Below, in pieces: positions 1 to 21,557 of a stretch of DNA of 64,000 nucleotides. Every line of letters begins with the position of its first letter. The first letter of the stretch is position 1. The position numbers and the translations under genes were made by a program. Source of the stretch: Deltaproteobacteria bacterium (GTDB taxonomy: Bacteria > Desulfobacterota > Binatia > HRBIN30 > JACQVA1); assembly GCA_016210005.1 (NCBI GenBank), contig JACQVA010000158.1:75180-139179 (forward strand), in the 5' to 3' direction. The notes under the pieces were generated by a model. It was not told the origin of the DNA and searched no databases. It worked only from the letters and a program-made list of their open reading frames with translations.

Positions 1-1320
1 CGTTTGCACGGCCGCGTCGACGTGACCGGCCAGTTCGATGCTGAGATGAAGATTCACGCGGTCATTCTCGGCACGCTTGTCGGGTTCACTGTGCGGTTCG
101 AGGCACACGGCATAGGTGACACGCGTGTTGGGCGTGTTGCCCAGAGCTGCCATGATGTCGGCGAAGCTCGTGCCACTCGGATCGTGCGTCTGGAATTCCG
201 CCACACAAACCTCGTCGAGATGCTTCTGTCGGCTCTTGAACTCCGTCCAATTGGACGGATCGTGGTCGACGATCGTGATGCGCGGCAAGATGTTCTCACC
301 GACCTCGTTGGCGAAGTGGCAAAGGCGCGCGGCTTGGAGCATGAGCGCACGGCCCATGAGACCGAAGCCGATCACGACCAGGTGTACGATTGTGTCATCG
401 TGCTCACGAACCGGCTCGGTGTCGAGGCCGTCTCGCACATCCAACGCATGGTGGTTGAGCGCCAGACGCGCCGCGGTGGCGTGGTAGTCGAGATCGCTGA
501 GATTCACCCGATAGCGCGGCGCCGAATCATCGCGCGGAGCGAGGTGGGTCCCAGTCGGGATGAGTTTGCTGCCTAACAGCACATCACGCGTCTTCGGGTT
601 CCGAATCAGGAGCCGCACGAGCAGGGGATCGAGGCTCGCCGGCCGCCGGGCAAGCAACTGCCCGGCCAGCGCGGCGATGGCAGTGTTGGTATGATCGTCG
701 GCGCAAGCAGCCACGAGGCATTCCGCGCCGGCCACACGAGCGCGCCGCAGCGTCGACTCCTCGCACGCGTTGCCTTCCAGCACCAAGACGCCGCCCCTCC
801 GTGCTTGCTCAAGCACCGAGGCATTGCCGCTCTTCTCGATGGCGACCACGAAGCGGCCGCGACGCCGTCCGTCCAACGCCAGGCGCGGGCCGAGGTCGCC
901 AAGGCCACAAATCACCACGTGGTCGTCCCACCAGCGCAATCGCCGGCCGAGGTCGCCAAGACCGCAAAGCACCACGTAGGCCCGCCACCAGCGCAGACGC
1001 AGCCGCACGAGGAGCCACTCCTGGCGAAAGAAGCCGAGGAAGGCCAAGAAGCCCGCGAGAAACACGACGACCACACTGAGCGCGCGCGCAGCATGCAACT
1101 CGGGCGGCACAGCGTGATCGAGATGGGGCGCGTGAAGGATCAGCAACTGCAGCGCGTGATAGGTCGCCGAGGCGAAATCCGCGTGGCCATCGTTCTGGGC
1201 CTGCTCGTAGCGCGCGTGTCCGAGAAACCCGAGCCCCAGCACTCCGAGCGTGCCGAGCGTGATGACCCAAAACATCCAGCCGTGCCGCCAGTCGTTGTTG
1301 CCGGACGATCCGTGCTCCAT
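1..1320 (-). CDS. Membrane protein with two TrkA-N/RCK NAD-binding domains (K+ transport/channel-associated); partial, C-terminus beyond window start
   Basis: Manual reverse-complement translation gives an uninterrupted frame from ATG at 1320 to position 1 (MEHGSSGNNDWRHGWMFWVITLGTLGVLGLGFLG...). Two TM helices, then two Rossmann motifs VVICGLGDLGRRL and VVIGFGLMGRAL with downstream acidic residues typical of TrkA-N. Not in ORF track because it runs off the edge. Confidence 0.6.
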   Translation of the reverse strand, partial: MEHGSSGNNDWRHGWMFWVITLGTLGVLGLGFLGHARYEQAQNDGHADFASATYHALQLLILHAPHLDHAVPPELHAARALSVVVVFLAGFLAFLGFFRQEWLLVRLRLRWWRAYVVLCGLGDLGRRLRWWDDHVVICGLGDLGPRLALDGRRRGRFVVAIEKSGNASVLEQARRGGVLVLEGNACEESTLRRARVAGAECLVAACADDHTNTAIAALAGQLLARRPASLDPLLVRLLIRNPKTRDVLLGSKLIPTGTHLAPRDDSAPRYRVNLSDLDYHATAARLALNHHALDVRDGLDTEPVREHDDTIVHLVVIGFGLMGRALMLQAARLCHFANEVGENILPRITIVDHDPSNWTEFKSRQKHLDEVCVAEFQTHDPSGTSFADIMAALGNTPNTRVTYAVCLEPHSEPDKRAENDRVNLHLSIELAGHVDAAVQT

Positions 1321-1387
1321 AGCTCCTCCGATCAGTGCAATCGGTGTCCATCCGTGTTCATCGGTGGTTTCATTCCCCGGGCCGACA

Positions 1388-1948
1388 TCAGAAACTCTCG
1401 AACGTCACCCTACCCTGCTGATGACCCAGCGACGTGGGTTCCGTCGTGCCGGGTTTACGATTGCCCGCGTGCACCCACGCGATCGGCAGGCCACGGCGGC
1501 GAGCATCGGTGACCACGCGGCCGGTACCGTTGTCGAGTTGTCCGTCCCACACCGCAATCAGCACGTCGCACTGATCGAGCACATAGCGGCCCACCGCGTC
1601 GTACGCGACGCGCCGCGACGGCGACGGCGGTAGTTCGATCACTCGCTCGGCTCGCTTCAGCAGCTCGTTGAACTCGCGCTTTGAAATCGCGTCCTCGAAG
1701 TCGTTGAGGTAGTCCGCCTTCGGGAGCGGTAGCGGCACGATGAGCTGCGCGTGGCGTCGCGCCAGCACGCGCTCCGCCACTAGCCGGTCCGCTCCTTCCG
1801 CCAACGGCGAGACGATGATCAGCGGTCGTTCAGCGAACGCGCGTTCGATCCGTTGCAACGCGGCGTCGATGCCGGCGTTGATCTTGTCCATCTCCGCCAG
1901 GATGCGATGGCCGGTGACGCCGATGCGGCAAGGCGGTGGTTTCATCAT
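1388..1948 (-). CDS. YpsA/DUF1273-like SLOG (DprA/LOG superfamily) Rossmann-fold nucleotide-binding protein
   Basis: ORF 1388..2014. Likely start MMKPPPCRIGVTGHR; motif layout TGHR...SPLAEGADRLVAE...DVLIAVWDG..GTG resembles the YpsA-type SLOG domain. Family assignment from memory of motif order, not a search. Confidence 0.45.
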   Translation of the reverse strand: MMKPPPCRIGVTGHRILAEMDKINAGIDAALQRIERAFAERPLIIVSPLAEGADRLVAERVLARRHAQLIVPLPLPKADYLNDFEDAISKREFNELLKRAERVIELPPSPSRRVAYDAVGRYVLDQCDVLIAVWDGQLDNGTGRVVTDARRRGLPIAWVHAGNRKPGTTEPTSLGHQQGRVTFESF

Positions 1949-2099
1949 CTCGATGCGCTCGACGTCGGCGTGCGATAGCTTTCGGCCAACTCCCTCCGTA
2001 ACACCCTGCTTCACTCAGATCCCTTCCGGCGGCTCGGGCTTCTTGGTGATCAGCCGCTTCCAGAACGGCAGCGCCTACCAGGCCGCGAACCGGCAATGC

Positions 2100-2543
2100 T
2101 CACCAGGCGCTCGGCGTCAAGACCTCGAGTGAGAACTGACGGTGGCGGCGCCGTATCAGGTTGAAGTCATCGCGATTGAAAGTGAACACCGTCGCCCCGA
2201 GGCGTCGGGCGCACAGCGCGATGAGGATGTCGTTGAGAAGTTGCTGTGTCTTTGCCTTCACATGCGGTTGCTTGCGGGTCATTCGCGCGATGAGCTTGCC
2301 GGCGTCGCTCCAATCCTCAAAGCTCGGCACAATCACGCGCCCGACCCTTCGCAGGGTCCCAATGTACCGGTCCACCAGACCCAGCGCGACCTTGTCCAAC
2401 GCGCCGGCGTACAGTTCCTCGGCAACGACCCCGGAAAGGTAGGTGTTGAAGAGCAGCGGAAAGAAGCGACGCTCAAACGCCTGACGCCCCGCGTCGGAAC
2501 GCATGGCCTCCAGATACACGTTGGTATCGAGAAGCCACTTCAC
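2100..2543 (-). CDS. vapC: PIN-domain ribonuclease toxin VapC
   Basis: N-terminal WLLDTNVYLEA (PIN acidic motif), 147 aa, overlaps the upstream antitoxin by 4 nt. Confidence 0.8.
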   Translation of the reverse strand: MKWLLDTNVYLEAMRSDAGRQAFERRFFPLLFNTYLSGVVAEELYAGALDKVALGLVDRYIGTLRRVGRVIVPSFEDWSDAGKLIARMTRKQPHVKAKTQQLLNDILIALCARRLGATVFTFNRDDFNLIRRRHRQFSLEVLTPSAW

Positions 2544-2746
2544 TCCGGCGCCCGCTCCAGATCGGCAAATCGCCCGCGCCCCTGTCGGATCAAGCGTCGC
2601 AGAGCGGTTGCTGTTTGGCGGTTGGCAATGGCTTCCTCGAGCGCGCAGCGAACCGTTTCCACATCGCTGGAGCTCTTCATCGCTCGGCGTGCTCGCTTGA
2701 GCAGCGTGTCCTCGATTTTCAACGCAGCATGCTTGTTCCGCGGCAT
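2540..2746 (-). CDS. vapB: VapB-like antitoxin of the VapC at 2100-2543
   Basis: Small ORF (start MPRNKHAALKIEDTLLKRARR) immediately upstream of and overlapping the PIN gene; alpha-helical/RHH-like. Confidence 0.5.
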   Translation of the reverse strand: MPRNKHAALKIEDTLLKRARRAMKSSSDVETVRCALEEAIANRQTATALRRLIRQGRGRFADLERAPE

Positions 2747-2962
2747 CGTCACACCTCTCGTACCGTCGCGATCGACGGGCGTGAGCAGTCTACTGCCTTT
2801 GAAACTCCAGCTCAATCGGCTCCGACGGTCCCCCCCCTGACACCCGACACCGGTCCTCTCTCAGTGCCCCAGCGGCGGCTCGGGCACATGCTAATCCCCG
2901 GCCCCGGGTGCGGGCTGTGGGCGGCCAGTTGTGGTATGAAAGTCATCAGCAGGAGGAGCCGC

Positions 2963-3211
2963 ATGACAGACCAGGCGCTGCTGGGACGCATTACGTTCAA
3001 CGCAGACATTTTCGGCGGGAAGCCGATCATTCGCGGGATGCGCATCTCGGTTGAACTGATTCTGAGTCTGCTGGCTCAGGGAGAGACGCCTGAAGCGCTC
3101 CTGGCCGACTACCCAGACCTCGAGTCGGCGGACATCCGTGCCTGCCTCGCGTATGCGCACGCCGTCATCGCACACGACTCCCTTGATGCGGTAGAGACGG
3201 CAAACAAGTGA
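2963..3211 (+). CDS. DUF433 family protein (putative antitoxin of the DUF433/DUF5615 pair)
   Basis: MTDQALLGRITFNADIFGGKPIIRGMRISVELIL... typical DUF433; RBS AGGAGG 7 nt upstream of ATG 2963; stop overlaps start of next gene. Confidence 0.6.
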   Translation: MTDQALLGRITFNADIFGGKPIIRGMRISVELILSLLAQGETPEALLADYPDLESADIRACLAYAHAVIAHDSLDAVETANK

Positions 3212-3558
3212 AGTTCCTCGTCGATCGCTGTGCCGGCCGCCGTCTGTCCGACTGGCTGCGTGCCGAAGGGTACGACGTTGTCGAGACCCGCGAGCGCGGC
3301 GGCGACCCTGGCGATGCCGCCATCCTGAACTGGGCCGCTGACGACGGCCGCGTACTCGTCACGATCGATACGGACTTCGGACGAATCGTCTTCGCCCAAG
3401 GCGCGCGCCACTGTGGTGTTGTGCGCTTACCCGACGTCCCTGCCGGCGTGCGCATCGCATTGATGGCGCAGGTGTTGAAGCGGCACTGGGGAGATTTGGA
3501 AGCCGAGGCGATCGTGACCGTGCGCGGCGGGAGAATCCGAATCTCCCGGTCTTCGTGA
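3208..3558 (+). CDS. DUF5615 (Mut7-C/PIN-like) putative toxin
   Basis: MKFLVDRCAGRRLSDWLRAEGYDVV... typical DUF5615; ATGA overlap with the DUF433 gene. Confidence 0.6.
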   Translation: MKFLVDRCAGRRLSDWLRAEGYDVVETRERGGDPGDAAILNWAADDGRVLVTIDTDFGRIVFAQGARHCGVVRLPDVPAGVRIALMAQVLKRHWGDLEAEAIVTVRGGRIRISRSS

Positions 3559-3719
3559 CGCCTCTGAAAGATTCTCAGATTGAACCTAACGGCCAACACG
3601 CTAACAGCGTAACAACCTGCCCCTCTCAGATTCCGCTCGGCGGCACCGGCCGCTTCGTGGTCCAGCGCCTCCACAGCGGCAGCTTGCGCCACTCGGCGAG
3701 CTTGCGTTGGTACTCGATG

Positions 3720-3825
3720 GCGCGGCGTCGATGCCCGCGGTGATCTCGTCCATCTCCGTCACGATGCGATGGCCGGTGACGCCGATGCGGCACGGTGGTG
3801 GCGGTGTGGGCTTATCGTTGGCCAT
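3720..3825 (-). pseudogene. N-terminal fragment (~35 codons) homologous to the SLOG gene at 1388-1948
   Basis: MANDKPTPPPPCRIGVTGHRIVTEMDEITAGIDAA then divergence. About 90 bp of nucleotide identity between 3722-3815 and 1858-1945. Confidence 0.45.
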
Positions 3826-3957
3826 CACGGAGCGCGGTGGGTCACGGCGTCTTGCCGCTCGCGAGCTTCCCGAGCACTCGGACGGTTGCGGAGCCTGCCG
3901 CACAAGTCCACGCGCGCGTTTACGTGCCTTGCTACAAAGAATCCACAGCCGCAACCA

Positions 3958-5808
3958 TCACTGAACGGTGGCAAGGTAGGCATCGGCTGTGCTCTTCACG
4001 TCCTTGTCGCTGGTCGTGTCCCGGACGCGGCGGACAGCTTCAATTACGGGGGCTGCTCTCATTTCTTTCACTGGCCCCTTGATCAGCGCATTTTGAATGT
4101 ACGGAGTCTCTTTGCGGAGAACATCGGCAACGTACGAAGCGCAGCGGTCCCCTTCGAGCGCGACGAGCGATGAGACCAACCCCAGCACTTGGTAATTGCC
4201 GACATAGCGAATTCGGTCGATCGCCTTCTTGATCACCTCACCGGCATCACGATCACCCCACTTTACCAAGAGATTGGCCACCCATTGGAACTCGGCCGGG
4301 TCGGCCATCTTGAGCTTCTCACGCAGTGCTGGAATCGCTTCGCGGAAATCAAGCTTCTCAAGAGCAGCGCCAAGGTTCGATCCGAAGGATCCCGTCACGC
4401 GCGTCTTCATGAGCTTCACCATCGCGTTTCCCACATCTGAACGCATGGTAGGCGGCGAGACTGTCGACAGCGCCCGGAGTAGCTCCGCGAGTTCGGTCTC
4501 TTCTACGGCAGGAAGCAGACCGATCATCGCACGCGTCGCCTCCTCTTGTACCCGCAAGGAATCGATCACACCTAGGAGAGGCGCAAGGCCTGCGGCAATC
4601 TGGCCCTGCCCACTTCCAAGCTTGAAACCGGATATCAGGCATCGCGCCTTGCGTTCCGGAGGGAGCGAACTTTCTCTGATCGCAGACAGCGCTTCCGCCC
4701 TTACCGCCTGGCTTGCCGCGCCAAGCCCCCGCTCACAGAGCGCATCGAGGATGGCCTTCAAAGTCGTCTCGTCATCCACCGCCCGCTGACTGATACGGAG
4801 CAAGGCGACGATCTTCCACGGCACGTCGTTTGCCGTCGGCTGTCTTAGCAATTCGATCAATGGGGGTATTTCTCGACCGTGCAGCTTCTCATTGAGCCCC
4901 GTCCAGACACCAGGCAGATTTTGGCTGCTCATGCTCCCACCATAGCCGGGCTGCGTAACCACCGCAGCCACAGCTTGTTCGACGGTTGCACGGTCACTCC
5001 TTAATGCCGGCTTCTGGGGCGTCCCTGAGTCTTCGCCCGCCGTGGGCGCTGTGGGAACGGTCGGCTCGCGCTCCTCCTGTGTAGGAGCTGGAGTCACCGT
5101 TACGGTGGGGCTCCTTGTCTCGGTCGCCGTGCCAGTAGGGCTTAGAGTGTGCGTCGGCGTATCCGCGGCAACCGGCGACGGAGTCACCAACGGCGGGGGG
5201 CCTGGACCACGGCCACCCCGCATCAGGTACGCGGCTGCTGCTACCAGGACCAACGCGGCAACCGCTACAAGTATCCACAACCACACTTTCGGTTGGTCTG
5301 GCGGTGGGGGCGGCGGGAATGACTCCCGGATGGCGGCGATGAGCCGATCGATATCAGTTTCGAAGTCGAGGCCGCCGCGAATCTCGATCGGGATGAGGTC
5401 TGCCAGCCTTCCCAGTTCCTCGGGAAGCTCCTCCTTATGCGGTCGCCTGCCCCCAGGTATGAGGACCGTGATGATGGGAATCTTCCGATCGAGTGCGCTT
5501 TGCAGTTCCCCACGCACGAAGTCCTCTGCGTCGGCCAGGCCCCGCTGGCGCTCCGGCCGCTCCGGGTCCTCTCCTTCGCGCCAGCCTGGACCGAAGATGC
5601 ATAGCAAGACGATGCTCTTTTCCAGGTTTTCGGCCATCCATTCCTGGAAGGTCTTCGGACCACCGCGCTGGTAGGTATCAATGGCAATCGACCAGTCCGG
5701 GAACGCGCGCGCTAGGCGATCCCGTATCCATTCCACGTGAGGCTGCGCTTGTTCATGGCGACGCCACGAGATGAAGACAGTCGGCTTAGTGTCGGTCTTG
5801 TTCGGCAT
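3958..5808 (-). CDS. TIR domain - single TM helix - Pro/Thr-rich linker - HEAT/PBS-lyase repeat protein
   Basis: ORF 3958..5874, probable start MPNKTDTKPTVFISWRR at 5808. N-terminal TIR-like fold (VFISWRR...SIVLLCIFGPGW...), TM WLWILVAVAALVLVAAAAYL, C-terminal HEAT-like repeats. Confidence 0.65.
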   Translation of the reverse strand: MPNKTDTKPTVFISWRRHEQAQPHVEWIRDRLARAFPDWSIAIDTYQRGGPKTFQEWMAENLEKSIVLLCIFGPGWREGEDPERPERQRGLADAEDFVRGELQSALDRKIPIITVLIPGGRRPHKEELPEELGRLADLIPIEIRGGLDFETDIDRLIAAIRESFPPPPPPDQPKVWLWILVAVAALVLVAAAAYLMRGGRGPGPPPLVTPSPVAADTPTHTLSPTGTATETRSPTVTVTPAPTQEEREPTVPTAPTAGEDSGTPQKPALRSDRATVEQAVAAVVTQPGYGGSMSSQNLPGVWTGLNEKLHGREIPPLIELLRQPTANDVPWKIVALLRISQRAVDDETTLKAILDALCERGLGAASQAVRAEALSAIRESSLPPERKARCLISGFKLGSGQGQIAAGLAPLLGVIDSLRVQEEATRAMIGLLPAVEETELAELLRALSTVSPPTMRSDVGNAMVKLMKTRVTGSFGSNLGAALEKLDFREAIPALREKLKMADPAEFQWVANLLVKWGDRDAGEVIKKAIDRIRYVGNYQVLGLVSSLVALEGDRCASYVADVLRKETPYIQNALIKGPVKEMRAAPVIEAVRRVRDTTSDKDVKSTADAYLATVQ

Positions 5809-6063
5809 ATCAGTTCGGCCTCGCTGCGCTTGGGCGGACTTTCCAGACCGCTTCACGACGGTATGCCATAGCACGCCTGTGGCGCTCTATTGCAACAGGG
5901 GCCGAAGTCGCGGCAGCCGAAAAATCTCGATCCGGCGGCTGTCCAGCCCGCGTGCGGAGTAGCGCCGATGCTGCTCTGTCAGCCGCTCGTAGAACGCGGT
6001 GACCCAGCCGCTCTCGTTGTCCGCCCGGGAGTAGGAGAGGAAGAGATGATGCATGGCTCAGCG

Positions 6064-9012
6064 CTACGGCTTGGCGGCGGATCGGCGCGGCTTGGTCGCG
6101 TGCGGATCGTCCGCTGCCGCGAATACGATCTTCTTTCCGGCCTCCTTGGCAAAATCCGGATAGTGGCGGATCGCATCGCGGTCCTTGTTCTTCTGCACTT
6201 CGGCAAGCTCCGCGAACGGCAGCAGGCAATCGTGACGCTTGTGGTCTTCGTCCTTCTTGGCCGCGTAGCGCCAGCCCTGTTGCAGATGCCACTGCATCCA
6301 ACGGTGGTGTTCGGCTTCCGCCAACAGCTCCAAGTGATATTCGAGATGCTGGCGCACGGCCGCTTCTTCGTCTGCCGCCCAGCGGCCGCTGGCAAGGCGC
6401 AACCCGACGATGTCGAGAATCTCGGGCATCCGCCCCGCCGCTTCGCGGTTCGACTCGATCAAGAACTTGCCGAGCCAAGGCGGCTTTCTTTCTTCCGGGT
6501 CCTTCTGCTTCTTGTTGTACTTCTCAATCGCCGCAGGCAGGTCCGCCATCTCAGCGTCCAGCCATGGCTTCAGCCACCCGCCCTTGCGGCCCAGTTCGCG
6601 CCAGACCCGATGAATCGCCGGGGCTACAGCCGCCACGTCGGCCTCGCTCATCGGCGGGACCGTCCGCGCGGGTTCGGCTCCGTCGCACTGGGCGAGAAAA
6701 CCGGTTGCGTGGGTTTGCATGTCGAGTTGACCGCGCGGGGGCAACAACGACCGCTGCAGGCGCCCCGGTCGCGCCGCCTGCAAGGGTTGCAGGATCTTGT
6801 CGAGCGATCGCGCGCCATGCCTGTACCTCTCGGCCCGCAAGAGCGCGCGGACCAGCGCCTCGTCGATGTCCAGCTTCTCGTCTCGCGCGCAGCCGAGCTT
6901 GGAACGAATCATCAGCGCGCGGCTGATAGGGAAGGTGAGGTCTTCGAGATCTTCCCTGAAAGAGTAGCCGGAGATGGTTTCAGTGATCTCGTTATTCCCG
7001 TTCGAAACTGCACGCTTTGATTTGCCGGCCTTCTTGTCGGGTGGCGCTACAACCATTCTGCGGTTCGGGCCGACGACGTCGAGATAGGCATCGAGACGGC
7101 TCCTGAAGTCTGGACCCTTGGCGAGGACAAACTCGCGATGAGCCTTGCGCTCGTCATCGAGCGCGTCCTGCGAAGGCGCCGGTGGGCCGAACGTCTCGAA
7201 CGTCAAGCTCGTCGCCCCCGCGAACACGAAGATGCACTTGCCGAGCGTATGCGTGAGTTGGCCTTGCTGAAACTTGCCGTCTTGCATCGGAGCCAGCAGG
7301 TACTGCAGCCACCGATAGTGCTGTGAGTCGAACTCGTCGAAGAACGCCACCGGCAACTGCTGCTGGAGCACGCGATCGCGGATCTGGTGGAACGCCCCGT
7401 TCAATTCGGCCAAGGTGTCGAACTGCGACAAGTTGAATTCCAGCCAGCGTTGCTTGCCCAGCAACGCCTCTGCCAGCTGCGACACCGCGAAGGACTTGCC
7501 GGAACCCGGCGGACCGAAGATTCCGATCGAGAGCGGGAGCTTGCCTTTGTCGTGATCGCGATAACGACAGATGAGTTGATCGAGCGTGCGCAAGGATTCG
7601 ATTTCGTCACGATGGACGGCGATCAGGTTACCGATGCCCACGTGCGGAACGTCGTAGAGGGCAATCGGTCCGTTCAGCAAGACCAGCCGGGCCAGCTCGT
7701 AGGCGGGCTGGTCATCCGTCCTTTGGCGGCAGCGCTGCGAGTCAACCAAGAGACTCCACGCCTGCGAAGGGCCCATGCCCGCCGATTTTGGTGACGCCGG
7801 CGCCGACTTCGGGGCGGAACCCGGAAACTCGGCCCGCGAGAAGCGATAGCCGGGATCCTTGATCACGGCCGCGAGCCGCTCCGCGGGAAAGCCCGCGCCC
7901 GGATGACTGACCGAGCCATGGCCCTTTTCGCGCAGATCGCGCATGGCCGACAGGCCTTGCTCCAACGCTGCAGCGAAGTCTGGGGTCTCGAGGTTACGCG
8001 TCATCTGCCACGCCACCGACGCAGCGAGGCAGGAGAGAAAGCCGAAGGCGGTCCCTTTGATCTGGCGCGCGTGCTCTCCCTCGATGGCCGCAGCGTCGTA
8101 CACGAACTGCACACGACACGCGTCGATCGCGTTGGCGGGTGTGGTCCGCTCACTGAAGTCGAGCCAGGCCGCTCCCTCCGATTCGAAGATGACGAGCAGG
8201 TGCCGGCAACGAGTGAGCGGCTGCAGGTCCGAACTTTCCCGCAACTCGCGCAGCAAGCTCTCGATGGTCGCTTCCCACGAAAGTCCGGCGCTGATTCGGG
8301 CGGCCGACTTCCGCAGCTCGCGCGCGGACACAATCACCACCAATCGCTTGGCGTGGTTCGCGACCAGATCGCGCCAGAGCTGACCCGACGCCACCGGGGC
8401 GGCGGTTTTGAGGACGATCCAGCGGGCTTCGCCGAGTTCCAGGTCCTTCCAGCAGTCGGGCTGCTCGCGAAACCCCATGCCGCCTTCCGAGAACACGATG
8501 ATCTTGGGTTGTTTGGGAAACCCCGCGGAGTGCCGCGCCGTGGGCCACACCGGCGAAGGGAGAGTGGCACCGGTTTCACCGAATCCCATCGCCTCGCTCA
8601 CGCGCCAGTACTGCTTGCCCTCCGGAGCGTCCTGCGGAAACGGCCGCCAGAACGCGTAGGCGTGGTGGCTGCTGTCGGCTTGTGCAGGTTCCTTGACAGA
8701 CTCATACGAGGCCCATCCGCCCGCTGGTGGCGGCGCCTGCTTCTTGCCGTCGGCCTGCTCCTTCTGCCCCAGGAGTTCCTTCAGCAAGCAGTGGACGACC
8801 CGCGCGCCCCCGACTTCGCGGACGTCATGCACGCCGCGGCTCAACGAATCGCCGTAATGCTTCCGGCGTCCTTCGTAGATGTGTCGATCGATCACGAAGT
8901 CGCCGCCGACCAGGATGCTCCCTTGGTCATCAGCGGCGCCCGCCCGGTCATTCCGGTGCGCACTGCCCTTGGCTTTGTTGGCTTGGTGAGGATACCGCTT
9001 GGTGCGACTCAT
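6064..9012 (-). CDS. Large AAA+ ATPase with unknown N-terminal region and two C-terminal RyR (ryanodine-receptor-type) domains
   Basis: 982-aa intact ORF. Walker A GIFGPPGSGKSF and Walker B VAFFDEFD. C-terminal AIHRVWRELGRKGGW...EILDIVGLRL and AEHHRWMQWHLQQGWRYA...KDRDAIRHYPDF match the bacterial RyR domain pattern. Confidence 0.7.
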   Translation of the reverse strand: MSRTKRYPHQANKAKGSAHRNDRAGAADDQGSILVGGDFVIDRHIYEGRRKHYGDSLSRGVHDVREVGGARVVHCLLKELLGQKEQADGKKQAPPPAGGWASYESVKEPAQADSSHHAYAFWRPFPQDAPEGKQYWRVSEAMGFGETGATLPSPVWPTARHSAGFPKQPKIIVFSEGGMGFREQPDCWKDLELGEARWIVLKTAAPVASGQLWRDLVANHAKRLVVIVSARELRKSAARISAGLSWEATIESLLRELRESSDLQPLTRCRHLLVIFESEGAAWLDFSERTTPANAIDACRVQFVYDAAAIEGEHARQIKGTAFGFLSCLAASVAWQMTRNLETPDFAAALEQGLSAMRDLREKGHGSVSHPGAGFPAERLAAVIKDPGYRFSRAEFPGSAPKSAPASPKSAGMGPSQAWSLLVDSQRCRQRTDDQPAYELARLVLLNGPIALYDVPHVGIGNLIAVHRDEIESLRTLDQLICRYRDHDKGKLPLSIGIFGPPGSGKSFAVSQLAEALLGKQRWLEFNLSQFDTLAELNGAFHQIRDRVLQQQLPVAFFDEFDSQHYRWLQYLLAPMQDGKFQQGQLTHTLGKCIFVFAGATSLTFETFGPPAPSQDALDDERKAHREFVLAKGPDFRSRLDAYLDVVGPNRRMVVAPPDKKAGKSKRAVSNGNNEITETISGYSFREDLEDLTFPISRALMIRSKLGCARDEKLDIDEALVRALLRAERYRHGARSLDKILQPLQAARPGRLQRSLLPPRGQLDMQTHATGFLAQCDGAEPARTVPPMSEADVAAVAPAIHRVWRELGRKGGWLKPWLDAEMADLPAAIEKYNKKQKDPEERKPPWLGKFLIESNREAAGRMPEILDIVGLRLASGRWAADEEAAVRQHLEYHLELLAEAEHHRWMQWHLQQGWRYAAKKDEDHKRHDCLLPFAELAEVQKNKDRDAIRHYPDFAKEAGKKIVFAAADDPHATKPRRSAAKP

Positions 9013-9428: not shown

Positions 9429-9939
9429 TCAACGGACCCGGCTCGCGATGCGTTCGAAGTGCAGGCGCGCCAGTCGGTCGCTGTCGTCGAGCACTTCCAG
9501 CCCCTCCTTCCGCAGTTGCTCGGCCACCAGCACGCGGGGCTCGACGCGGACGGCATCGCAGCGTTCGAGGGCGCCGCCCACAAAGACGAACCGCCACTCG
9601 CACCACGGCCGGCGCTCGTCGACGTAGTCACCCCAGAGAGACTCACGGTCTCGCAGGTACAACACGGGCTGGCACTGATCGCAGAACGCGTACGCCGTGA
9701 CCTCGGCAGTCAGCGCGACGGGATCGGCGATTCGCCGCGCCGACAGCACGAGCTTGTCCCCCTCGGCGAGGTGGACCGTCTCGTCATCTCTCTCGGCCGG
9801 CCGGTAGAGGCGCGCGCGATGGACGACATATTCCGCCATCGTGCATTCCAGATCCTTGGTTTGCAGCGAGCGCAGCACATGTCCCGCGGCACACCACGGC
9901 GCATCGTCGCCGTGGAAACGGATGGTGTCGTACATGCCC
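9429..9939 (-). CDS. Hypothetical protein
   Basis: ORF with ordinary amino-acid composition (not Arg/Ala shadow-like), possible start MGMYDTIRFHGDD; no family recognised. Confidence 0.3.
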
Positions 9940-10203
9940 ATGTCGATCTCCGTTCGTGTGATCATCAATGTAGCGCGGCAGTGGCAGCGCGTGAACGGCG
10001 CATCCACAGGCGTCGGAATTCCGTTGCACGTCCTGCTGGTTGCCGGTTGGCGCTGCTTCGCGCTACACCGGCGCGCATGTGGAGGCGATTCTTTTCACGC
10101 GGCGGCCGGTGCGGTGGCGACACCCGCGAGTTCCGGGCGCCACGTGGTGATTGTCACGCCCGGACGTATCCTGAAGCTGCAACCGTGTCCGCTACCCGGG
10201 TCG

Positions 10204-10895: not shown

Positions 10896-11519
10896 TCAGA
10901 CTTGGTGAGAGCGACGGGCCGCGATCTCTCGGCTGGCCACGACCAATTCCCGGAAGTGCCGTGCCATAAAGAGCACCTTGGTGCCGTCACGCCGCTTCAT
11001 GGCCAGTGCGACGCTGCGAACGGCTCGGTACAGTTCCATCAAGTCGTCGACCGCGGGCAGCGGGCCGTCGGCAACGAAGGCATTGGTCAGCGCACGCATG
11101 ACGCCCTCTGGTGTCCCTTCGTGCACGAAGGGGTCGAAGCCGTTCAGATCGCTGAGGCTCTTTTGCAGCCGATACGCCTTCGCCTCGAAGACAAACCAGC
11201 GGTGCGTATCGGATAACTGGCTGAGGCCGACGGCCAACCCGAGCTCGAACGGCATATTGAACCGTGGGCAGCGCGGCGGCTCGTGCGACCGCTCAACGCG
11301 CGACAGATCGTGAATCGAAGCGTCACAGCTCTGCAGCAACTGGACGATCCGATCCAGGCGATTCCATGCCCGCGCCTGCGGCGGAATCTCGAGCACACAC
11401 CGCGGGTCGAGACCCAGGCCGGTCAGTCCGGCGATGAAGGCCAAATACAGGCGTTCGAACTTCGCATCGTAGGGGATGTTCAGGAAGACGGTGGTGCGGC
11501 GCTTGGGGCCAGCGGTCAT
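10896..11519 (-). CDS. Hypothetical protein, weakly TIR-like N-terminus
   Basis: 207-aa ORF MTAGPKRRTTVFLNIPYD...; the pattern VFLNIPY / SIHDLS / FELGLA is reminiscent of a TIR-like fold, but weak. Confidence 0.35.
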   Translation of the reverse strand: MTAGPKRRTTVFLNIPYDAKFERLYLAFIAGLTGLGLDPRCVLEIPPQARAWNRLDRIVQLLQSCDASIHDLSRVERSHEPPRCPRFNMPFELGLAVGLSQLSDTHRWFVFEAKAYRLQKSLSDLNGFDPFVHEGTPEGVMRALTNAFVADGPLPAVDDLMELYRAVRSVALAMKRRDGTKVLFMARHFRELVVASREIAARRSHQV

Positions 11520-12322: not shown

Positions 12323-12781
12323 TTATGCCGCTCTGGAACGGAGGTAGTCCAGGCTCCCGGGTACATCGCGCACGATGCGTAAGAGCGCATCGTACGCGAC
12401 GCTTTGAACCGCCCGTTCCGTTTCCCAGCGCGCGACGAGGTCTTTGTTGACTCGGAGAGCGCGTGCTAATGCCGCGGCGCTCAGCCCGAGTTCTCTCCGC
12501 AGCGCGCCGATCTCCGTGGCAGCGAGCAACCGGTGCTTGCGCCGATAGATGGCCTGAGCGGAACGGAAGAGCAGGCGAGCCTCCGCCAGCGTGAACAGAC
12601 CCTCTCCGCAGCGAGGGCAGCCAAGGTGAGCGACGTCGCGTACCTGGATCGGCTCACCGTTGATGGCTAGCCGTACCTGTCTGCGTGTCGGCTTCATCGC
12701 CGTGCCGCACGAGGGGCAGGTGTCATCGTCGGGGCGTCCCCCGGCCCCGCGCCGGTTGTGCCTATTGTTTGTCGTCTTCAT
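12323..12781 (-). CDS. mqsA: MqsA-type antitoxin (zinc-finger + XRE HTH)
   Basis: Two CxxC pairs (CPSCG...CPRCG) followed by an HTH (LLAATEIGALRRELGLSAAALARALRVNKDLVARWE); lies downstream of mqsR as in the canonical mqsRA order. Confidence 0.6.
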   Translation of the reverse strand: MKTTNNRHNRRGAGGRPDDDTCPSCGTAMKPTRRQVRLAINGEPIQVRDVAHLGCPRCGEGLFTLAEARLLFRSAQAIYRRKHRLLAATEIGALRRELGLSAAALARALRVNKDLVARWETERAVQSVAYDALLRIVRDVPGSLDYLRSRAA

Positions 12782-13076
12782 GGAAGGAGATGACCACACA
12801 GTCGGAACGAAGGGCGAGCTTCAAATAGACGGGAATACCAGCAACTTCTGGTTTGAAGACGTACAGCCATTCCGGTGAGGTCTGAGACCGCAGCCGTTCG
12901 CCGAAGTCGTCGCGGGTCAGCTCGGACAGGACGAGGCACACATCGTCCGGATCGAGGCTCAGGTCGAGCGCCGCCAGCTCCACGAGTGCCTTGTCCGTTA
13001 GCCGGACGCTGCCCGATGCTGCGAGAGTGTGAATGCGATTGAGAACCTTTGAAAGCCATCGAGGCATGCACCACAA
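12762..13076 (-). CDS. mqsR: MqsR-family mRNA interferase toxin
   Basis: 104 aa; C-terminus PVYLKLALRSDCVVISFHEDDKQ matches the MqsR ...VYLKITVIHDVLIVSFKEK pattern. Confidence 0.65.
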   Translation of the reverse strand: MWCMPRWLSKVLNRIHTLAASGSVRLTDKALVELAALDLSLDPDDVCLVLSELTRDDFGERLRSQTSPEWLYVFKPEVAGIPVYLKLALRSDCVVISFHEDDKQ

Positions 13077-13576: not shown

Positions 13577-14008
13577 CTACGGGCGTGTTATCTTCAAGCG
13601 TCCCGCGACCCGCTCTTCTGCCAGAAACTCATACGGCAGCCTGACGCGTAGCCCGTAGAACTGGCCGCCAAGAAGATCGGCGAAATCTTCGCGATCCAGC
13701 GTCAGCAGCGTTCTTGAGCACGCAAGCGCGGTGAAGAGAATCGGGCGGTCCTTGCTGGCGGCGAAGATCACTGGGCGATCCAGGGAGACGATGTCATCCA
13801 CGATCATGAGCTGCGGTCGCAGGCGCAGCCATTCCACCGTCCCAGCAGCGGGCAGCTTGGGGAGGTTTCGAATCACCTCGTTGATTGCATAGGCGCTGCT
13901 CACCAGCGTCCATCCGGCCGCTGGCGCGAGATGAAAAATCGCGCGCGATGATCCTTTGGCAGAACCGCACGCCGCCAGCAGTACGCTTGCGTCGAGAAAG
14001 ACCTTCAC
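13577..14008 (-). CDS. vapC: PIN-domain toxin VapC
   Basis: MKVFLDASVLLAA PIN N-terminus; 4-nt overlap with upstream antitoxin. Confidence 0.75.
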   Translation of the reverse strand: MKVFLDASVLLAACGSAKGSSRAIFHLAPAAGWTLVSSAYAINEVIRNLPKLPAAGTVEWLRLRPQLMIVDDIVSLDRPVIFAASKDRPILFTALACSRTLLTLDREDFADLLGGQFYGLRVRLPYEFLAEERVAGRLKITRP

Positions 14009-17880: not shown

Positions 17881-17934
17881 ACAGTCACCGCGTGCTTGAG
17901 CCGCCTCGCGGAACTCGGCTATGATGTCGTTCAG

Positions 17935-18357
17935 ATGAAGGTCTTCCTCAGTTACGCCACTGTCGACAACAAGTGGGCGAGTCAGCTCCGTGAGCGGCTT
18001 GCCCACGCGGGTCTCGATGTGTGGGACCCGAACCGCGAGGTTCTTCCGGGCCAGGACTGGTCTGGGAAGATCAGCGGAGCCCTGCGCGACTCCGATGCAA
18101 TGGTTGTGCTGGTGTCACCGCAGGCCGCCGAGTCCGATTCAGTTCGGCGCGAGATCGAGTACGCACTCGGGTCGCCGCGCTATGCGCACCGCCTGATTCC
18201 CCTCGTCATCCGGCCCACGAGGAAGCTGCCGTGGATCCTGGAGCAGCTGCAGATGGTCCCGCTCAACAATAACATCGAGCGAGCCGCCCGAGCGATCGTC
18301 AAGCGACTGGAGCAGGGCACTGAGCGCGGCAAAGAAGCGCGGGCTGCGGCCCACTGA
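17935..18357 (+). CDS. TIR-domain protein (ThsB-like, TIR-only)
   Basis: MKVFLSYATVDNKWASQLRERLAHAGLDVWDP...AMVVLVSPQAAESDSVRREIEYAL canonical TIR layout; alternative upstream TTG 17896. Confidence 0.65.
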   Translation: MKVFLSYATVDNKWASQLRERLAHAGLDVWDPNREVLPGQDWSGKISGALRDSDAMVVLVSPQAAESDSVRREIEYALGSPRYAHRLIPLVIRPTRKLPWILEQLQMVPLNNNIERAARAIVKRLEQGTERGKEARAAAH

Positions 18358-18787
18358 GATCTTTCTCGCGCATTCCGCCCGCGACGTCGTCTTCGTCGCG
18401 GGGCTTGCCGAGCGGCTACGCGCCGATGGGATGCTCCCGTGGTACAGCGAGCGGCATATCGTCGGTGCGCGGCAATGGCACGACGAGATCGGCCAGGCCC
18501 TTGAGCGCTGCGATTGGTTCGCCGTGGTCCTCTCGCCATCGTCGGTGCGATCGGAATGGGTCAGACACGAGTTGCTCTACGCACTGGGCGAGGCACGTTA
18601 CCGGCGCCGGATCGTCCCGATCCTCTACCGGGCTTGTCAGGTCACTCGCCTCTCGTGGACCCTGCCAAGCTTTCAGTACATCGACTTCACAAAGGGATTC
18701 GACCCTGGCTACGCGGCTCTCCTTCGGGTCTGGGCGCGCGCATCAGCCTCCACGAGTGCGCGCCCATATCGGAGCCGCTCAAGGTGA
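18344..18787 (+). CDS. Second TIR-domain protein; conserved N-terminal beta-strand lies upstream of the only ATG, and no canonical start is in frame
   Basis: Frame open from stop 18194-18196 to 18787. Conserved IFLAHSARDVVFVAGLAERLRADGMLPWYSE...VVLSPSSVRSEWVRHELLYAL begins ~18359, but the first ATG/GTG/TTG is at 18431; only CTG at 18344. Frame is +1 relative to the preceding TIR gene, which ends at 18357. Confidence 0.45.
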   Translation: MRPTEIFLAHSARDVVFVAGLAERLRADGMLPWYSERHIVGARQWHDEIGQALERCDWFAVVLSPSSVRSEWVRHELLYALGEARYRRRIVPILYRACQVTRLSWTLPSFQYIDFTKGFDPGYAALLRVWARASASTSARPYRSRSR

Positions 18788-18807
18788 GCCGATCGGAAGG
18801 GACCCGC

Positions 18808-19290
18808 TTGTGGCAGATGGCATATGGCTGATCGTACGGACGACAGTTCGTGCGCTGGCTGGGTCTCCTCGGCGACTCTGTGTTTGCCTCCTCGCTGGAC
18901 CATCAGCCATCTGCGATCAGCGACATGCTCCGTCTGGCTTTGAGCTTTCAGCTTGTGGCTTGTAGCTCTCTCCGAGCGTGATGATGTACAAGTGATTCGC
19001 GCTCGCCCCGACCCAGGCGCGACCGTTCGGGAAGGTCGAGATATGATCGAGGGGCACCGGGAACCGCGCGACGGAGGTTGCGGTGGCCGCGTCTTCGATG
19101 ACCGTTTCCGGCCCCCGACGGAGCGCGCGAAAGGGGAAGCGCGACGGCCCGGCGGCAATGGCCTCGACGTGCGCCTCGCGGTCGCCCGTGCCCTGGATCA
19201 CGTTCCGCTCGCCGCTCGCCGCGTCCCAGACAGGCATCGTGTTGTCCAGAGGCGCGCTGACGATGGTGCGCCGTCAGCGCTCGGCGTCGA
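18808..19290. repeat. Direct repeat R7 (hairpin + core with ~15-bp insertion + diverged blade extension)
   Basis: ggcagatggcatatggctgatcg...gaccatcagccatctgcgatcagcgac hairpin; core 18960-19260. Confidence 0.8.
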
Positions 19291-20327: not shown

Positions 20328-21557
20328 TCACTCCGCCCACAACGCTGACAACGGCACGAGCCACAGTTGATCGCCGGACGGTACAACCTGGTCACCCAAG
20401 TAAAGCACGATGCCGGCGGCGAACCGTTTGCGCAGTTGATCGCGCAAGGCGCGCAGCGCCGCGAAATCGGAGGCATCCACCGTGGCGCTGGCTTTGACTT
20501 CTACGGCGGCGATCGACCCGTCGGCCTTTTCCAGCACGACATCCACTTCCGAGCCGGTCGCCGTGCGAAAGTGGCACAGCGACGTTTGCGGATCCGTCCA
20601 GGAAATCTGCTTGTGGAGTTCGCCCACGACAAACGTCTCCAACATTCGCCCCAGCAAGGCGCGATCCTCGGTGAGCCGCCGGGCATTCGCGCCGAGGAGG
20701 TGGCAGGCCAAGCCGGTGTCCACCAGATGTAGTTTGGGCGCTTTGACCAGACGCTTGCCGAGGTTCGGCGACCACGCCGGCAGCCGATGAACCAGGAACA
20801 CCGTTTCCAGCAGCGACAGGTAGCGCGTCAGCGAGGTGTGCGGCAAGCGGGCGTCGCGACCCACGTCGGCGAGGTTCAGCAAGCCAGCGGCCCGGGCCGC
20901 CAGCAGCTTGAGCAGATTCGGCAGCGCGTGTAACGCGTCCACCCGCGCCAGATCGCGCACGTCTCGTTGCAGAATCGTGGAGATGTAGGACGCGAACCAC
21001 GCCGCCCGGCGTCCTTCATCTTTGCGCGCGACTGCTTCCGGGTAACCGCCGCGAGCCAATCGGACCGCAAGCTCATTCTTTGCGGAAACCAATTTCGCCT
21101 TGCCGACCGTGCCATCGAACAGGCGCTTCAAGAAGCCCTCGCGTTTGCCTGCGATTTCTCCCACCGAAAACGGAAACAAGGGAACGACCTCCATCCGCCC
21201 GGCCAGCGATTCCGACAACCGTGGCAGCGTCATCACATTGGCCGAACCAGTCAGCAGGAAGCGACCGGGCCGGCGGTTCTTGTCCACCGCGAGTTTGATG
21301 GCGGGAAACAGATCGGGGGCTTTCTGAATTTCATCGACAACGACCGGGCCAGACACGTTGCGAATGAACCCGGCCGGATCGCCGGCCGCCAACGCCAGCG
21401 TGGCGGCATCGTCGAAGGTGAAGTATTGCGCCCCGGTCTCTTCCGCGATCGCGCGGACCAGCGTGGTCTTCCCGGTCTGCCGCGCGCCGTTGAGCAGCAC
21501 CACCGGCGTGTCGGCCAACGCCTGCCGAATCGAGCCTTCGATGCTCCGCCGAATCAC
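20328..21557 (-). CDS. AAA+ ATPase with C-terminal DUF4143 (COG1373 family)
   Basis: 409 aa, Walker A GARQTGKTT, typical AAA_14 + DUF4143 architecture. Confidence 0.8.
   Translation of the reverse strand: MIRRSIEGSIRQALADTPVVLLNGARQTGKTTLVRAIAEETGAQYFTFDDAATLALAAGDPAGFIRNVSGPVVVDEIQKAPDLFPAIKLAVDKNRRPGRFLLTGSANVMTLPRLSESLAGRMEVVPLFPFSVGEIAGKREGFLKRLFDGTVGKAKLVSAKNELAVRLARGGYPEAVARKDEGRRAAWFASYISTILQRDVRDLARVDALHALPNLLKLLAARAAGLLNLADVGRDARLPHTSLTRYLSLLETVFLVHRLPAWSPNLGKRLVKAPKLHLVDTGLACHLLGANARRLTEDRALLGRMLETFVVGELHKQISWTDPQTSLCHFRTATGSEVDVVLEKADGSIAAVEVKASATVDASDFAALRALRDQLRKRFAAGIVLYLGDQVVPSGDQLWLVPLSALWAE

Follow-up and report, generated by a model that had tools for sequence, protein, structure and literature searches.

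Signals derived from ADP-ribose (ADPR) by TIR domains are an immune language common to bacteria, plants, and animals, and bacteria are known to receive them through SLOG, Macro, and SLATT domains and a few more. The SLATT family was named for its association with SLOG. In Thoeris, types I to XI of which have been described, a ThsB TIR protein is accompanied by an effector that senses the signal (bioRxiv 10.64898/2025.12.03.692087), and the same logic of nucleotide generation, sensing, and effector action runs through the SLOG/SMODS/SLATT nucleotide-centric conflict systems of Burroughs et al. (2015; summarized in PMC6459960 and PMC7159879). Phages counter such signals with proteins bearing RyR (ryanodine-receptor-type) domains. 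RyR Tad sequesters 3'cADPR, 2'cADPR, and cADPR (cADPR, cyclic ADPR; bioRxiv 10.64898/2026.06.04.730250), while RyDEP is a glycosidase that hydrolyses 2'/3'cADPR to ADPR, the products of which go into NAD+ resynthesis (PMC13232231). Both studies, preprints of 2026, note that the phage domain is homologous to R12 of the ryanodine receptors of animals, and both cover viral proteins only (PMC13232231; bioRxiv 10.64898/2026.06.04.730250). Here, we describe tandem RyR domains on the host side, in a gene cluster at one end of a 64,000-nucleotide (nt) stretch of a Deltaproteobacteria bacterium genome (assembly GCA_016210005.1, contig JACQVA010000158.1, positions 75,180 to 139,179; hereafter the window).

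A preliminary description of this DNA had pointed out three co-oriented elements on the minus strand, namely the gene for an AAA+ ATPase with RyR domains (AAA-RyR), the gene for a TIR protein with a transmembrane (TM) helix and HEAT repeats (TIR-TM-HEAT), and a fragment of a SLOG gene. All three are present where they had been placed, the AAA-RyR gene being intact. The module really spans positions 1-9012 of the window (Table 1), and the window copy is a rearranged version of a core operon, AAA-RyR / SLOG / (TIR) / TrkA_N-RyR. We read it as a Thoeris-like conflict module for TIR-made nucleotide signals, in which the tandem RyR (R12-type) domains would act as the signal receptors, and we give this reading, with its putative role in defense and its putative ligand, a probability of about 0.5.

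The Pfam RyR model (PF02026) matched residues 885-950 of AAA-RyR directly (E 9e-12; 45.5 bits against a cut-off of 27.4), and the profile of the AAA-RyR family matched the ryanodine-receptor repeat structures determined by crystallography and cryo-EM at E 1e-32. Two RyR domains had been counted in the C-terminus, and this count holds with one canonical and one degenerate repeat. Repeat 1 (residues ~795-875) was undetected by Pfam; we regard the region upstream of the Pfam match as a second, degenerate RyR repeat, because the repeat-2 segment of the family profile matched twice in tandem in more than 25 distant homologs. Among 31 homologs, H902, W905, and D944 of repeat 2 are invariant, while H927 is found in 30, K943 in 28, and K or R at position 920 in 29. 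Counted from H902, the offsets of W905, K920, H927, K943, and D944 (+3, +18, +25, +41, and +42) are those of the residues with which RyR Tad contacts its ligand, H129, W132, K147, H154, K170, and D171 (bioRxiv 10.64898/2026.06.04.730250). The spacing is likewise identical to that of the contact residues H75, W78, H100, and D117 of RyDEP, of which H75 and D117 form the catalytic dyad (PMC13232231). Repeat 1 retains H801 in 25 of the 31 homologs and an aromatic residue at position 804, but it lacks the His and Lys-Asp that serve as ligand residues. Judging from these residues, the tandem appears to mimic the homodimer of the phage proteins, albeit with a single intact pocket, and we infer that the repeat-2 pocket binds an ADPR-derived nucleotide. 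That RyR domains are ligand-binding modules, as had been assumed for AAA-RyR, agrees with the experiments on the two phage proteins (PMC13232231; bioRxiv 10.64898/2026.06.04.730250).

RyDEP (PMC13232231) and RyR Tad (bioRxiv 10.64898/2026.06.04.730250) thus share with AAA-RyR the PF02026 domain, the contact residues with their spacing, and a two-fold R12-like arrangement, which is a homodimer in the phage proteins and a tandem repeat here. On the other hand, the phage proteins are small sponges or glycosidases that defeat the host, whereas the domain described here is encoded by the host, has one intact pocket of two, is fused to AAA+/PfkB-like, TrkA_N, RelA/SpoT, or TIR-NACHT modules, and shares operons with TIR and SLOG genes.

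AAA-RyR represents a family of ~100 database clusters of 850-950 amino acids (aa), which align over 95% of the length of AAA-RyR at 34-59% identity. At least 445 relatives were found among 600 candidate stretches (one genome per GTDB species). The 80 loci retained, all from metagenome-assembled genomes (MAGs), span Planctomycetota, Acidobacteriota, Chloroflexota, Verrucomicrobiota, deltaproteobacterial lineages, Bacteroidota, and others. The sequence is conserved from about residue 32 on. The NCBI annotation of the window gene (P0001) is a protein of 730 aa, the start of which is placed 252 codons late, inside a conserved domain (the PfkB-like domain, see below); the deposited protein is therefore truncated at its N-terminus.

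The Pfam AAA model (PF00004) matched AAA-RyR directly and above its cut-off (26.4 bits against 21.2) at residues 498-565, over profile positions 3-70 only. The matches of AAA_5 and bpMoxR were below threshold, and all matches of AAA type fell within residues 498-599. In the family alignment, Walker A (GPPGSGKS, residues 500-507; G500-P-P-G-x-G-K-S507, including K506), Walker B (DEFD, residues 559-562, with D559 and E560), the 'LAPMQDG' segment, and R639 in 'PDFxSRLD', a candidate arginine finger, are invariant. Because of this invariance, the ATPase looks active. The motif 'LAPMQDG...PDFxSRLD' looks more like that of classical AAA proteins than that of MoxR. The MoxR-vWA-beta-propeller systems (PMC7159879) resemble the present cluster in the weak bpMoxR match (E 1e-4), in the TIR, SLOG, and NUDIX effectors that occur there too, and in their phyletic bias to Planctomycetota, Chloroflexota, Acidobacteriota, and deltaproteobacteria. 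Membership of the ATPase in these ternary systems was considered and rejected: the bpMoxR match reached 21.7 bits against a cut-off of 27, and neither a vWA protein nor a system-specific beta-propeller partner was seen among the scanned representatives of the neighboring genes.

The N-terminal ~450 aa of AAA-RyR had been described as belonging to no recognizable family. This is correct for the sequence, as no match was found in Pfam, NCBIfam, or the sequences of the PDB, against which the N-terminal profile retrieved antibody noise only. In the predicted structure, however, this part adopts a ribokinase-like alpha/beta (PfkB) fold. An alignment by hhalign of the N-terminal profile with an approximate sequence of E. 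coli RbsK covered the first 42 columns at a probability of 0.2. With the sequence-based searches yielding noise or nothing, the PfkB assignment follows from the fold alone. Where PfkB kinases have DTxGAGD, the consensus of the family is GxAFGFLSC with no acidic residue (position taken from the secondary structure of the model, without superposition), and 'SAxELR' stands where the NxxE motif would be expected (position from the predicted secondary structure), NxxE not being kept in the family. The PfkB/ribokinase kinases have the fold in common with AAA-RyR, which lacks their Pfam/HMM match and seems to lack the Asp of DTxGAGD and a conserved NxxE. The N-terminus is probably a PfkB-like domain that binds a ribose or a nucleoside rather than a kinase, and a conserved domain of 430 residues that previously had no fold is now assigned one. 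A metagenomic protein (P0101; locus L088, 168-2273) carries the PfkB-like domain (39% identity over 337 residues) fused to TIR_2, without AAA or RyR. It is known from a single 3-kb contig and could be a deletion product.

We called open reading frames (ORFs) in 83 related loci, clustered the neighbors, and built our own profiles for TIR, the SLOG family, and RyR; the counts below refer to the 80 loci outside the window that have a called AAA-RyR gene and come from different species. Within 5 kb of the AAA-RyR gene, a TIR gene was found in 29 loci, a member of the SLOG family in 27, and an additional protein with tandem RyR domains in 14. At least one of these partners was present in 27 of the 41 loci with 5 kb or more on both sides. 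Within 5 kb, TIR genes reached 3.2 times the density that they had between 5 and 10 kb (37 vs. 8; binomial p 9e-4). The association is directional as well. AAA-RyR is followed by more than 700 bp of sequence in 75 loci. There, the immediate co-oriented downstream gene encoded a SLOG protein 13 times and a TIR protein 12 times, and the remainder had the split-off RyR end of the same gene (3), another gene (25), or no such gene (22). When the SLOG homologs were taken as the starting point, three of the four on long contigs lay directly after an RyR protein of 832-897 aa (AAA-RyR). Altogether, AAA-RyR is in a recurrent, directional operon association with YpsA-like SLOG, TIR-type, and other proteins with tandem RyR, and the presumption that TIR and SLOG genes would recur beside it is borne out.

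The additional RyR proteins have the architectures RelA_SpoT-LSDAT(SLOG)-RyR, NUDIX-RelA_SpoT-RyR, TIR_2-NACHT-RyR, and TM-TrkA_N-RyR. Among nine unlabeled large genes in the co-oriented downstream runs, five encode DUF4062-STAND-TPR/WD40 proteins and one an Ank-TIR_2 protein; in one locus (L003), a DUF4062-AAA_16-TPR gene lies directly past AAA-RyR. DUF4062 presumably belongs to the TIR-like clan, and the TIR count is then an underestimate, because DUF4062 proteins adjoin AAA-RyR. The components of two loci are those of the window: the gene order is AAA-RyR / SLOG / TIR_2 / TrkA_N-(IS)-RyR in L084, where IS denotes an insertion sequence, and AAA-RyR / SLOG / TrkA_N-RyR in L086. The TrkA_N-RyR gene of L084 (7142-10220) is split by the insertion of a DDE transposase gene, a further sign of frequent disruption of the cluster.

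The ORF at the left end of the window (TM-TrkA_N) matched Pfam TrkA_N at E 6e-16 and has TM helices at residues 15-34 and 74-101. It clusters with the TrkA_N-RyR proteins of other loci, and its homologs end in tandem RyR domains. The same TrkA_N gene comes after the SLOG gene in L086 and L084. Inside the window gene, a 57-nt unit occurs twice in tandem with 83% match (window 884-995), duplicating the strand and the GxGxxG start of the Rossmann domain ('RLRWWRAYVVLCGLGDLG / RLRWWDDHVVICGLGDLG').

The intact SLOG protein of 186 aa has more than 1879 relatives of ~184 aa, none of which is annotated. Its predicted structure, computed with an alignment of database sequences only, shows a Rossmann-like fold closest to YpsA. 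At the level of sequence, the window protein matched neither Pfam YpsA/DUF1273 nor any other SLOG model even at E up to 10, NCBIfam had no match to it either, one fused relative matched YAcAr at E 4.5e-4 (below the cut-off), and the profile of the family gave noise only against PDB sequences. In the segment E-G53-A-D55-R, G53 and D55 are invariant in 37-39 sequences, matching the GxD/E signature regarded as substrate-binding in YpsA (PMC6459960). The earlier assignment of the fragment's family to SLOG therefore stands through homolog profiles and structure prediction (the YpsA-like fold and the GxD signature), not through a direct match, and more than 1800 unannotated small proteins can be placed in a YpsA-like SLOG family. 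Longer relatives beside AAA-RyR genes carry SLATT_1 or SLATT_3 membrane-effector domains.

The fragment itself had been listed as a part of the module. A partial copy of the YpsA-like SLOG gene is indeed present, but it is a dead stub with ~35 SLOG codons ('MANDKPTPPPPCRIGVTGHRIVTEMDEITAGIDAA') followed by unrelated sequence. The duplication of the SLOG start region, given previously as ~90 bp at 3722-3815, is real and is corrected here to 81 nt at 3721-3801, which are 91% identical to 1859-1939; the similarity ends at both sides. The stub is a relic and not a system component, the functional partner being the intact SLOG gene 2 kb away.

TIR-TM-HEAT gave no Pfam or NCBIfam domain match when scanned as a single sequence, HEAT_2 appearing at E=1 only, and the proposed architecture thus fails the direct Pfam test for TIR; it is upheld through the homologs. 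A word-index search retrieved the protein itself alone. An exhaustive search found ~17,900 relatives for residues 8-170, and fewer proteins that have residues 290-615 in common with it; the best relative was 37% identical, and none exceeded ~40%. TIR_2 was matched by 35 of 40 aligned homologs and HEAT_2 by six that share the C-terminal region, and the homolog profile matched the TIR domain of SARM1 at E 4e-14. The precomputed annotation of the database also lists PF13676, and the NCBI name is 'TIR domain-containing protein'. The profile segment 'DFVRiEietAL' aligns with 'DWVHKEIVTAL' of SARM1, the Glu of which we take to be the catalytic E642, and 'DFVRGELQSAL' of the window protein keeps this Glu. 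The TIR domain (residues 8-170) is followed by one strongly hydrophobic helix (175-197), a Pro/Thr-rich linker, and helical repeats (~290-615). With the TIR domain in the cytoplasm, the HEAT-like part would lie outside the membrane.

The spacing of 256 bp between the AAA-RyR and TIR-TM-HEAT genes was reported correctly, but the interval is not empty. It holds an ORF of 55 codons, which starts 9 nt past the AAA-RyR stop codon, matches the first 36-49 residues of TIR proteins flanking AAA-RyR elsewhere (L046, E 1e-5; L036, E 1e-4), and matches our TIR profile over positions 2-28. This ORF is the 5' stub of an earlier TIR gene, which lay directly after AAA-RyR, and points to the replacement of one TIR gene by another. 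We also considered the stub and TIR-TM-HEAT as one frameshifted gene and rejected this, as both possess a first strand of the form 'F(L/I)S(Y/W)' and the TIR domain of TIR-TM-HEAT is complete.

A 39-nt motif occurs in three copies, 74% identical to one another, which exactly bracket two toxin-antitoxin (TA) cassettes, VapBC and DUF433/DUF5615. No fourth copy was found within the 64 kb at three or fewer mismatches to a pattern built from these three copies. A window-wide repeat element was considered, but the motif was seen solely at the three cassette borders. It could be a recombination site of the cassettes or a shared promoter/operator, its significance being uncertain with a self-derived pattern. 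Taken together, the TrkA_N gene, the TIR stub, and the placement of the 39-nt motif indicate an ancestral operon AAA-RyR / TIR / SLOG / TrkA_N-RyR, in which the TIR gene would have been exchanged and the 5' end of the SLOG gene would have received 1.86 kb of TA cargo, with duplication of ~81 nt of that gene.

As we picture the module, a TIR protein would detect a trigger through its non-TIR part and then convert NAD+ to an ADPR-derived signal. The trigger sensor would be, in the window, a membrane-anchored TIR protein with an extracytoplasmic HEAT-like domain, and in other loci TIR or DUF4062 combined with STAND, TPR, WD40, or ankyrin parts. The conservation of the residues and the biochemistry of phage RyR suggest that the signal could bind AAA-RyR in the one pocket that is intact, that of RyR repeat 2, and likewise the co-encoded TM-TrkA_N-RyR; the small YpsA-like SLOG protein may bind it as well. 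The ligand would switch the hexameric AAA+ motor and the PfkB-like, ribose- or nucleoside-binding domain on or off and gate the two-TM TrkA_N-RyR protein as a membrane effector, and the infected cell would arrest growth or die.

The module resembles Thoeris in that a TIR protein with the catalytic Glu stands beside proteins binding nucleotide signals (SLOG, sometimes SLOG-SLATT), in that its TIR partners differ between loci, and in its setting in a defense/TA island. It differs in its constant part, a ~900-aa PfkB-like / AAA+ / tandem-RyR protein with RyR as the candidate sensor; neither this protein nor an RyR sensor is among the Thoeris effectors of the survey (bioRxiv 10.64898/2025.12.03.692087). 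Furthermore, SLOG is YpsA-like here and usually without an effector domain, and many of the TIR partners are large STAND/repeat proteins, not the small ThsB. The PADLOC models of ThsA and ThsB do not match the module proteins, no effector architecture known from Thoeris is present, and the TIR/SLOG/AAA-RyR combination is not constant. With the SLOG/SMODS/SLATT systems, the cluster shares YpsA-clade SLOG, variable neighborhoods with TIR, NUDIX, and SLATT, and the overall nucleotide logic; as far as checked, these sources describe neither the AAA-RyR family nor its PfkB-like domain (PMC6459960, PMC7159879).

The impression that no named system corresponds to the module holds as far as checked. 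PADLOC v2 had no match to AAA-RyR, TIR-TM-HEAT, SLOG, or TM-TrkA_N except for a marginal one to the Walker A region of AAA-RyR (E 0.0015), and RyR is not mentioned in the text or the four supplementary files of the 2025 systematic survey of TIR systems (bioRxiv 10.64898/2025.12.03.692087). RyR is also absent from PMC6459960 and PMC7159879 (term search) and from PMC9503650 (full-text search), Burroughs et al. (2015) being outside the reach of the search. No relevant paper emerged from literature searches for the RyR domain together with SLOG/SLATT, or together with TrkA and AAA. As far as checked, the constant PfkB-like/AAA+/RyR protein, RyR as a candidate sensor shared by several outputs, and the TM-TrkA_N-RyR partner are in none of PADLOC v2, the survey, and the Aravind-group papers searched.

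Several observations weigh against the receptor reading. In 31 of the 80 loci, among them 14 of the 41 whose flanks are complete, our profiles detected no TIR, SLOG, or additional RyR gene within 5 kb of AAA-RyR, and the genes compared are simple longest-ORF calls on MAGs of uncultured organisms. In the window, the operon is broken by insertions, includes two gene stubs, and may be decaying; the SLOG protein is three residues short in its conserved Gly-rich loop; and the coupling of TIR-TM-HEAT to AAA-RyR could be recent or absent, with TIR partners being very heterogeneous and TIR-TM-HEAT having neither close relatives nor a representative in the other 80 loci. AAA-RyR has no obvious toxic domain, and its PfkB-like domain seems to be without the catalytic Asp of a kinase.

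The absence of a recognizable toxin would suit a different role, in which AAA-RyR terminates or buffers the signal of its own host. The RyR pocket would then cleave or sequester the cADPR-type signal made by the TIR protein, the PfkB-like domain would bind or process the ADPR product, and the AAA+ motor might dismantle active TIR assemblies, so that the protein sets the threshold of activation and resets the system, a role like that of ring nucleases in type III CRISPR or Trip13 in CBASS. The dyad H75 and D117 of RyDEP corresponds to the invariant H902 and D944, a ribose/nucleoside-kinase fold lies beside the would-be ADPR-releasing domain just as the RyDEP products feed NAD+ resynthesis, the neighbors SLOG-SLATT, TM-TrkA_N-RyR, and RelA_SpoT-RyR look like the effectors, and no gene of the cluster is as constant as AAA-RyR, as would fit a regulator. 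Nevertheless, this His and Asp are also conserved in animal RyRs and in phage homologs with binding activity only (PMC13232231) and so give no indication of catalysis; because they are, the sequence cannot decide between receptor and terminator. No canonical catalytic residue of a kinase is evident in the PfkB-like domain, and AAA-RyR stands without a nearby TIR gene in many loci. We regard a terminator as rather unlikely. Still less probable, in our view, is a housekeeping or stress circuit of second messengers serving ion flux or alarmone metabolism instead of anti-phage defense, with RyR, TrkA_N, SLOG, RelA/SpoT, and NUDIX sensing or processing ordinary NAD(H), ATP, ADPR, or (p)ppGpp. Ion transport is ordinarily gated by TrkA_N/RCK domains through NAD(H) or ATP, ATP is a ligand of the animal R12 domain (bioRxiv 10.64898/2026.06.04.730250), the family is chromosomal and as widespread as the count of its relatives implies, the PADLOC models miss the four module proteins save for the marginal match to AAA-RyR, and about one third of the full-flank loci are without conflict-type neighbors. 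Against such a circuit, the direct operon neighbors repeatedly encode TIR, DUF4062-STAND, SLATT, and ankyrin/TPR/WD40 sensor proteins, partners differ between loci and gene stubs occur, as is typical of conflict systems, and the setting in the window is rich in TA and defense genes.

The third alternative bears on the window alone, where TIR-TM-HEAT and the TA cassettes might be independent island cargo that came by accident to lie beside an AAA-RyR / SLOG / TrkA_N-RyR operon. The isolation of TIR-TM-HEAT among known sequences and loci, its position between the TIR stub and the SLOG stub, which is a recombination scar, and the TA cassettes demonstrably inserted at the locus would all agree with this. 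The TIR stub shows, however, that an earlier TIR gene lay directly after AAA-RyR, as in 12 other loci, and a swap of TIR for TIR resembles the modular exchange of a sensor component; we hold accidental adjacency to be very improbable.

Beyond the receptor reading, it is possible, if doubtful, that host tandem RyR domains are the native receptors of TIR-made cADPR-type signals in a widespread, undescribed immune system, in which PfkB-like/AAA+, TrkA_N, and RelA/SpoT outputs are gated by the same pocket, and that phage RyR proteins are captured host copies. An RyR domain of the phage type with the same pocket residues is found on the host side, in TIR/SLOG operons across many phyla and in several output fusions. 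If RyR is a receptor, it would constitute a new receptor class with new effector types (an AAA+ motor joined to a kinase-fold domain, a membrane protein with TrkA_N, and synthetases of alarmone type), explain the origin of the phage RyR sponges, and offer a tractable bacterial model in which a direct action of cADPR-type signals on R12 domains could be examined. The link between cADPR and the ryanodine receptor, which is debated in animals, would then have a prokaryotic antecedent with TIR and RyR as operon partners.

Table 1. Coordinates of the cluster and the adjoining features in the window.
Feature	Position	Strand	Remarks
AAA-RyR gene	6064..9012	-	intact ORF of 982 codons; PfkB-like domain, AAA+ ATPase, tandem RyR
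PfkB/ribokinase-fold domain of AAA-RyR (predicted)	7618..8919	-	residues ~32-465
AAA+ ATPase module of AAA-RyR	6793..7605	-	residues ~470-740
RyR repeat 1 of AAA-RyR, degenerate	6388..6645	-	residues ~790-875
RyR repeat 2 of AAA-RyR, canonical R12-type	6148..6372	-	residues 881-955
5' stub of older TIR gene	5887..6054	-	55-codon ORF 'MHHLFLSYSRADNESGWVTAFYERL'
TIR-TM-HEAT gene, 616 aa, from MPNKTD	3958..5808	-	TIR / one TM / Pro-Thr-rich linker / HEAT-like
SLOG gene stub	3601..3825	-	ORF from ATG 3825
TA cassette DUF433 / DUF5615 (PIN-like)	2963..3558	+	Pfam DUF433 E 7e-24, DUF5615 E 3e-17
TA cassette VapB / VapC (PIN)	2100..2815	-	Pfam PIN E 4e-9, VapB_antitoxin E 5e-4
Intact YpsA-like SLOG gene, 186 aa	1388..1948	-	conserved AAA-RyR partner
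TM-TrkA_N gene, 5' part (440 codons)	1..1320	-	runs off the left end of the window
39-nt motif, three copies	2001..2039, 2847..2885, 3612..3650		borders of both TA cassettes

The GC content is even across positions 1-9012 of the window (0.59-0.67). Farther along the window, a MqsR/MqsA TA pair lies at 12323-13076 (-) and a further PIN-domain protein is encoded at 13577-14008 (-), making at least four modules of TA type in 12 kb when VapBC and DUF433/DUF5615 are counted. A standalone TIR_2 / ThsB-like protein of 153 aa is encoded at 17896-18357 (+), with a Pfam match at E 2e-25 and matches to the PADLOC models ThsB and Aga_TIR. A 186-aa protein without a family match follows 48 nt past it (18405-18965, +), and the two genes at 17896-18965 may be a separate small pair of TIR plus effector. 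The DUF4143/AAA_14 ATPase at 20328-21557 (-) matches the PADLOC candidate defense family PDC-S01 at E 1e-170 and is adjoined by a 684-aa TPR protein (21932-23986). Thus, the surroundings are a TA and defense island with VapBC, DUF433/DUF5615, MqsRA, PIN, the ThsB-like TIR, and PDC-S01 within 22 kb. Just upstream of the AAA-RyR gene lie two ORFs of 192 aa (9429-10007, -) and 207 aa (10896-11519, -), neither of which had a match in Pfam, NCBIfam, or PADLOC. The start of the 207-aa ORF ('TVFLNIPYDAKF') bears a faint resemblance to the first strand of TIR-like domains.

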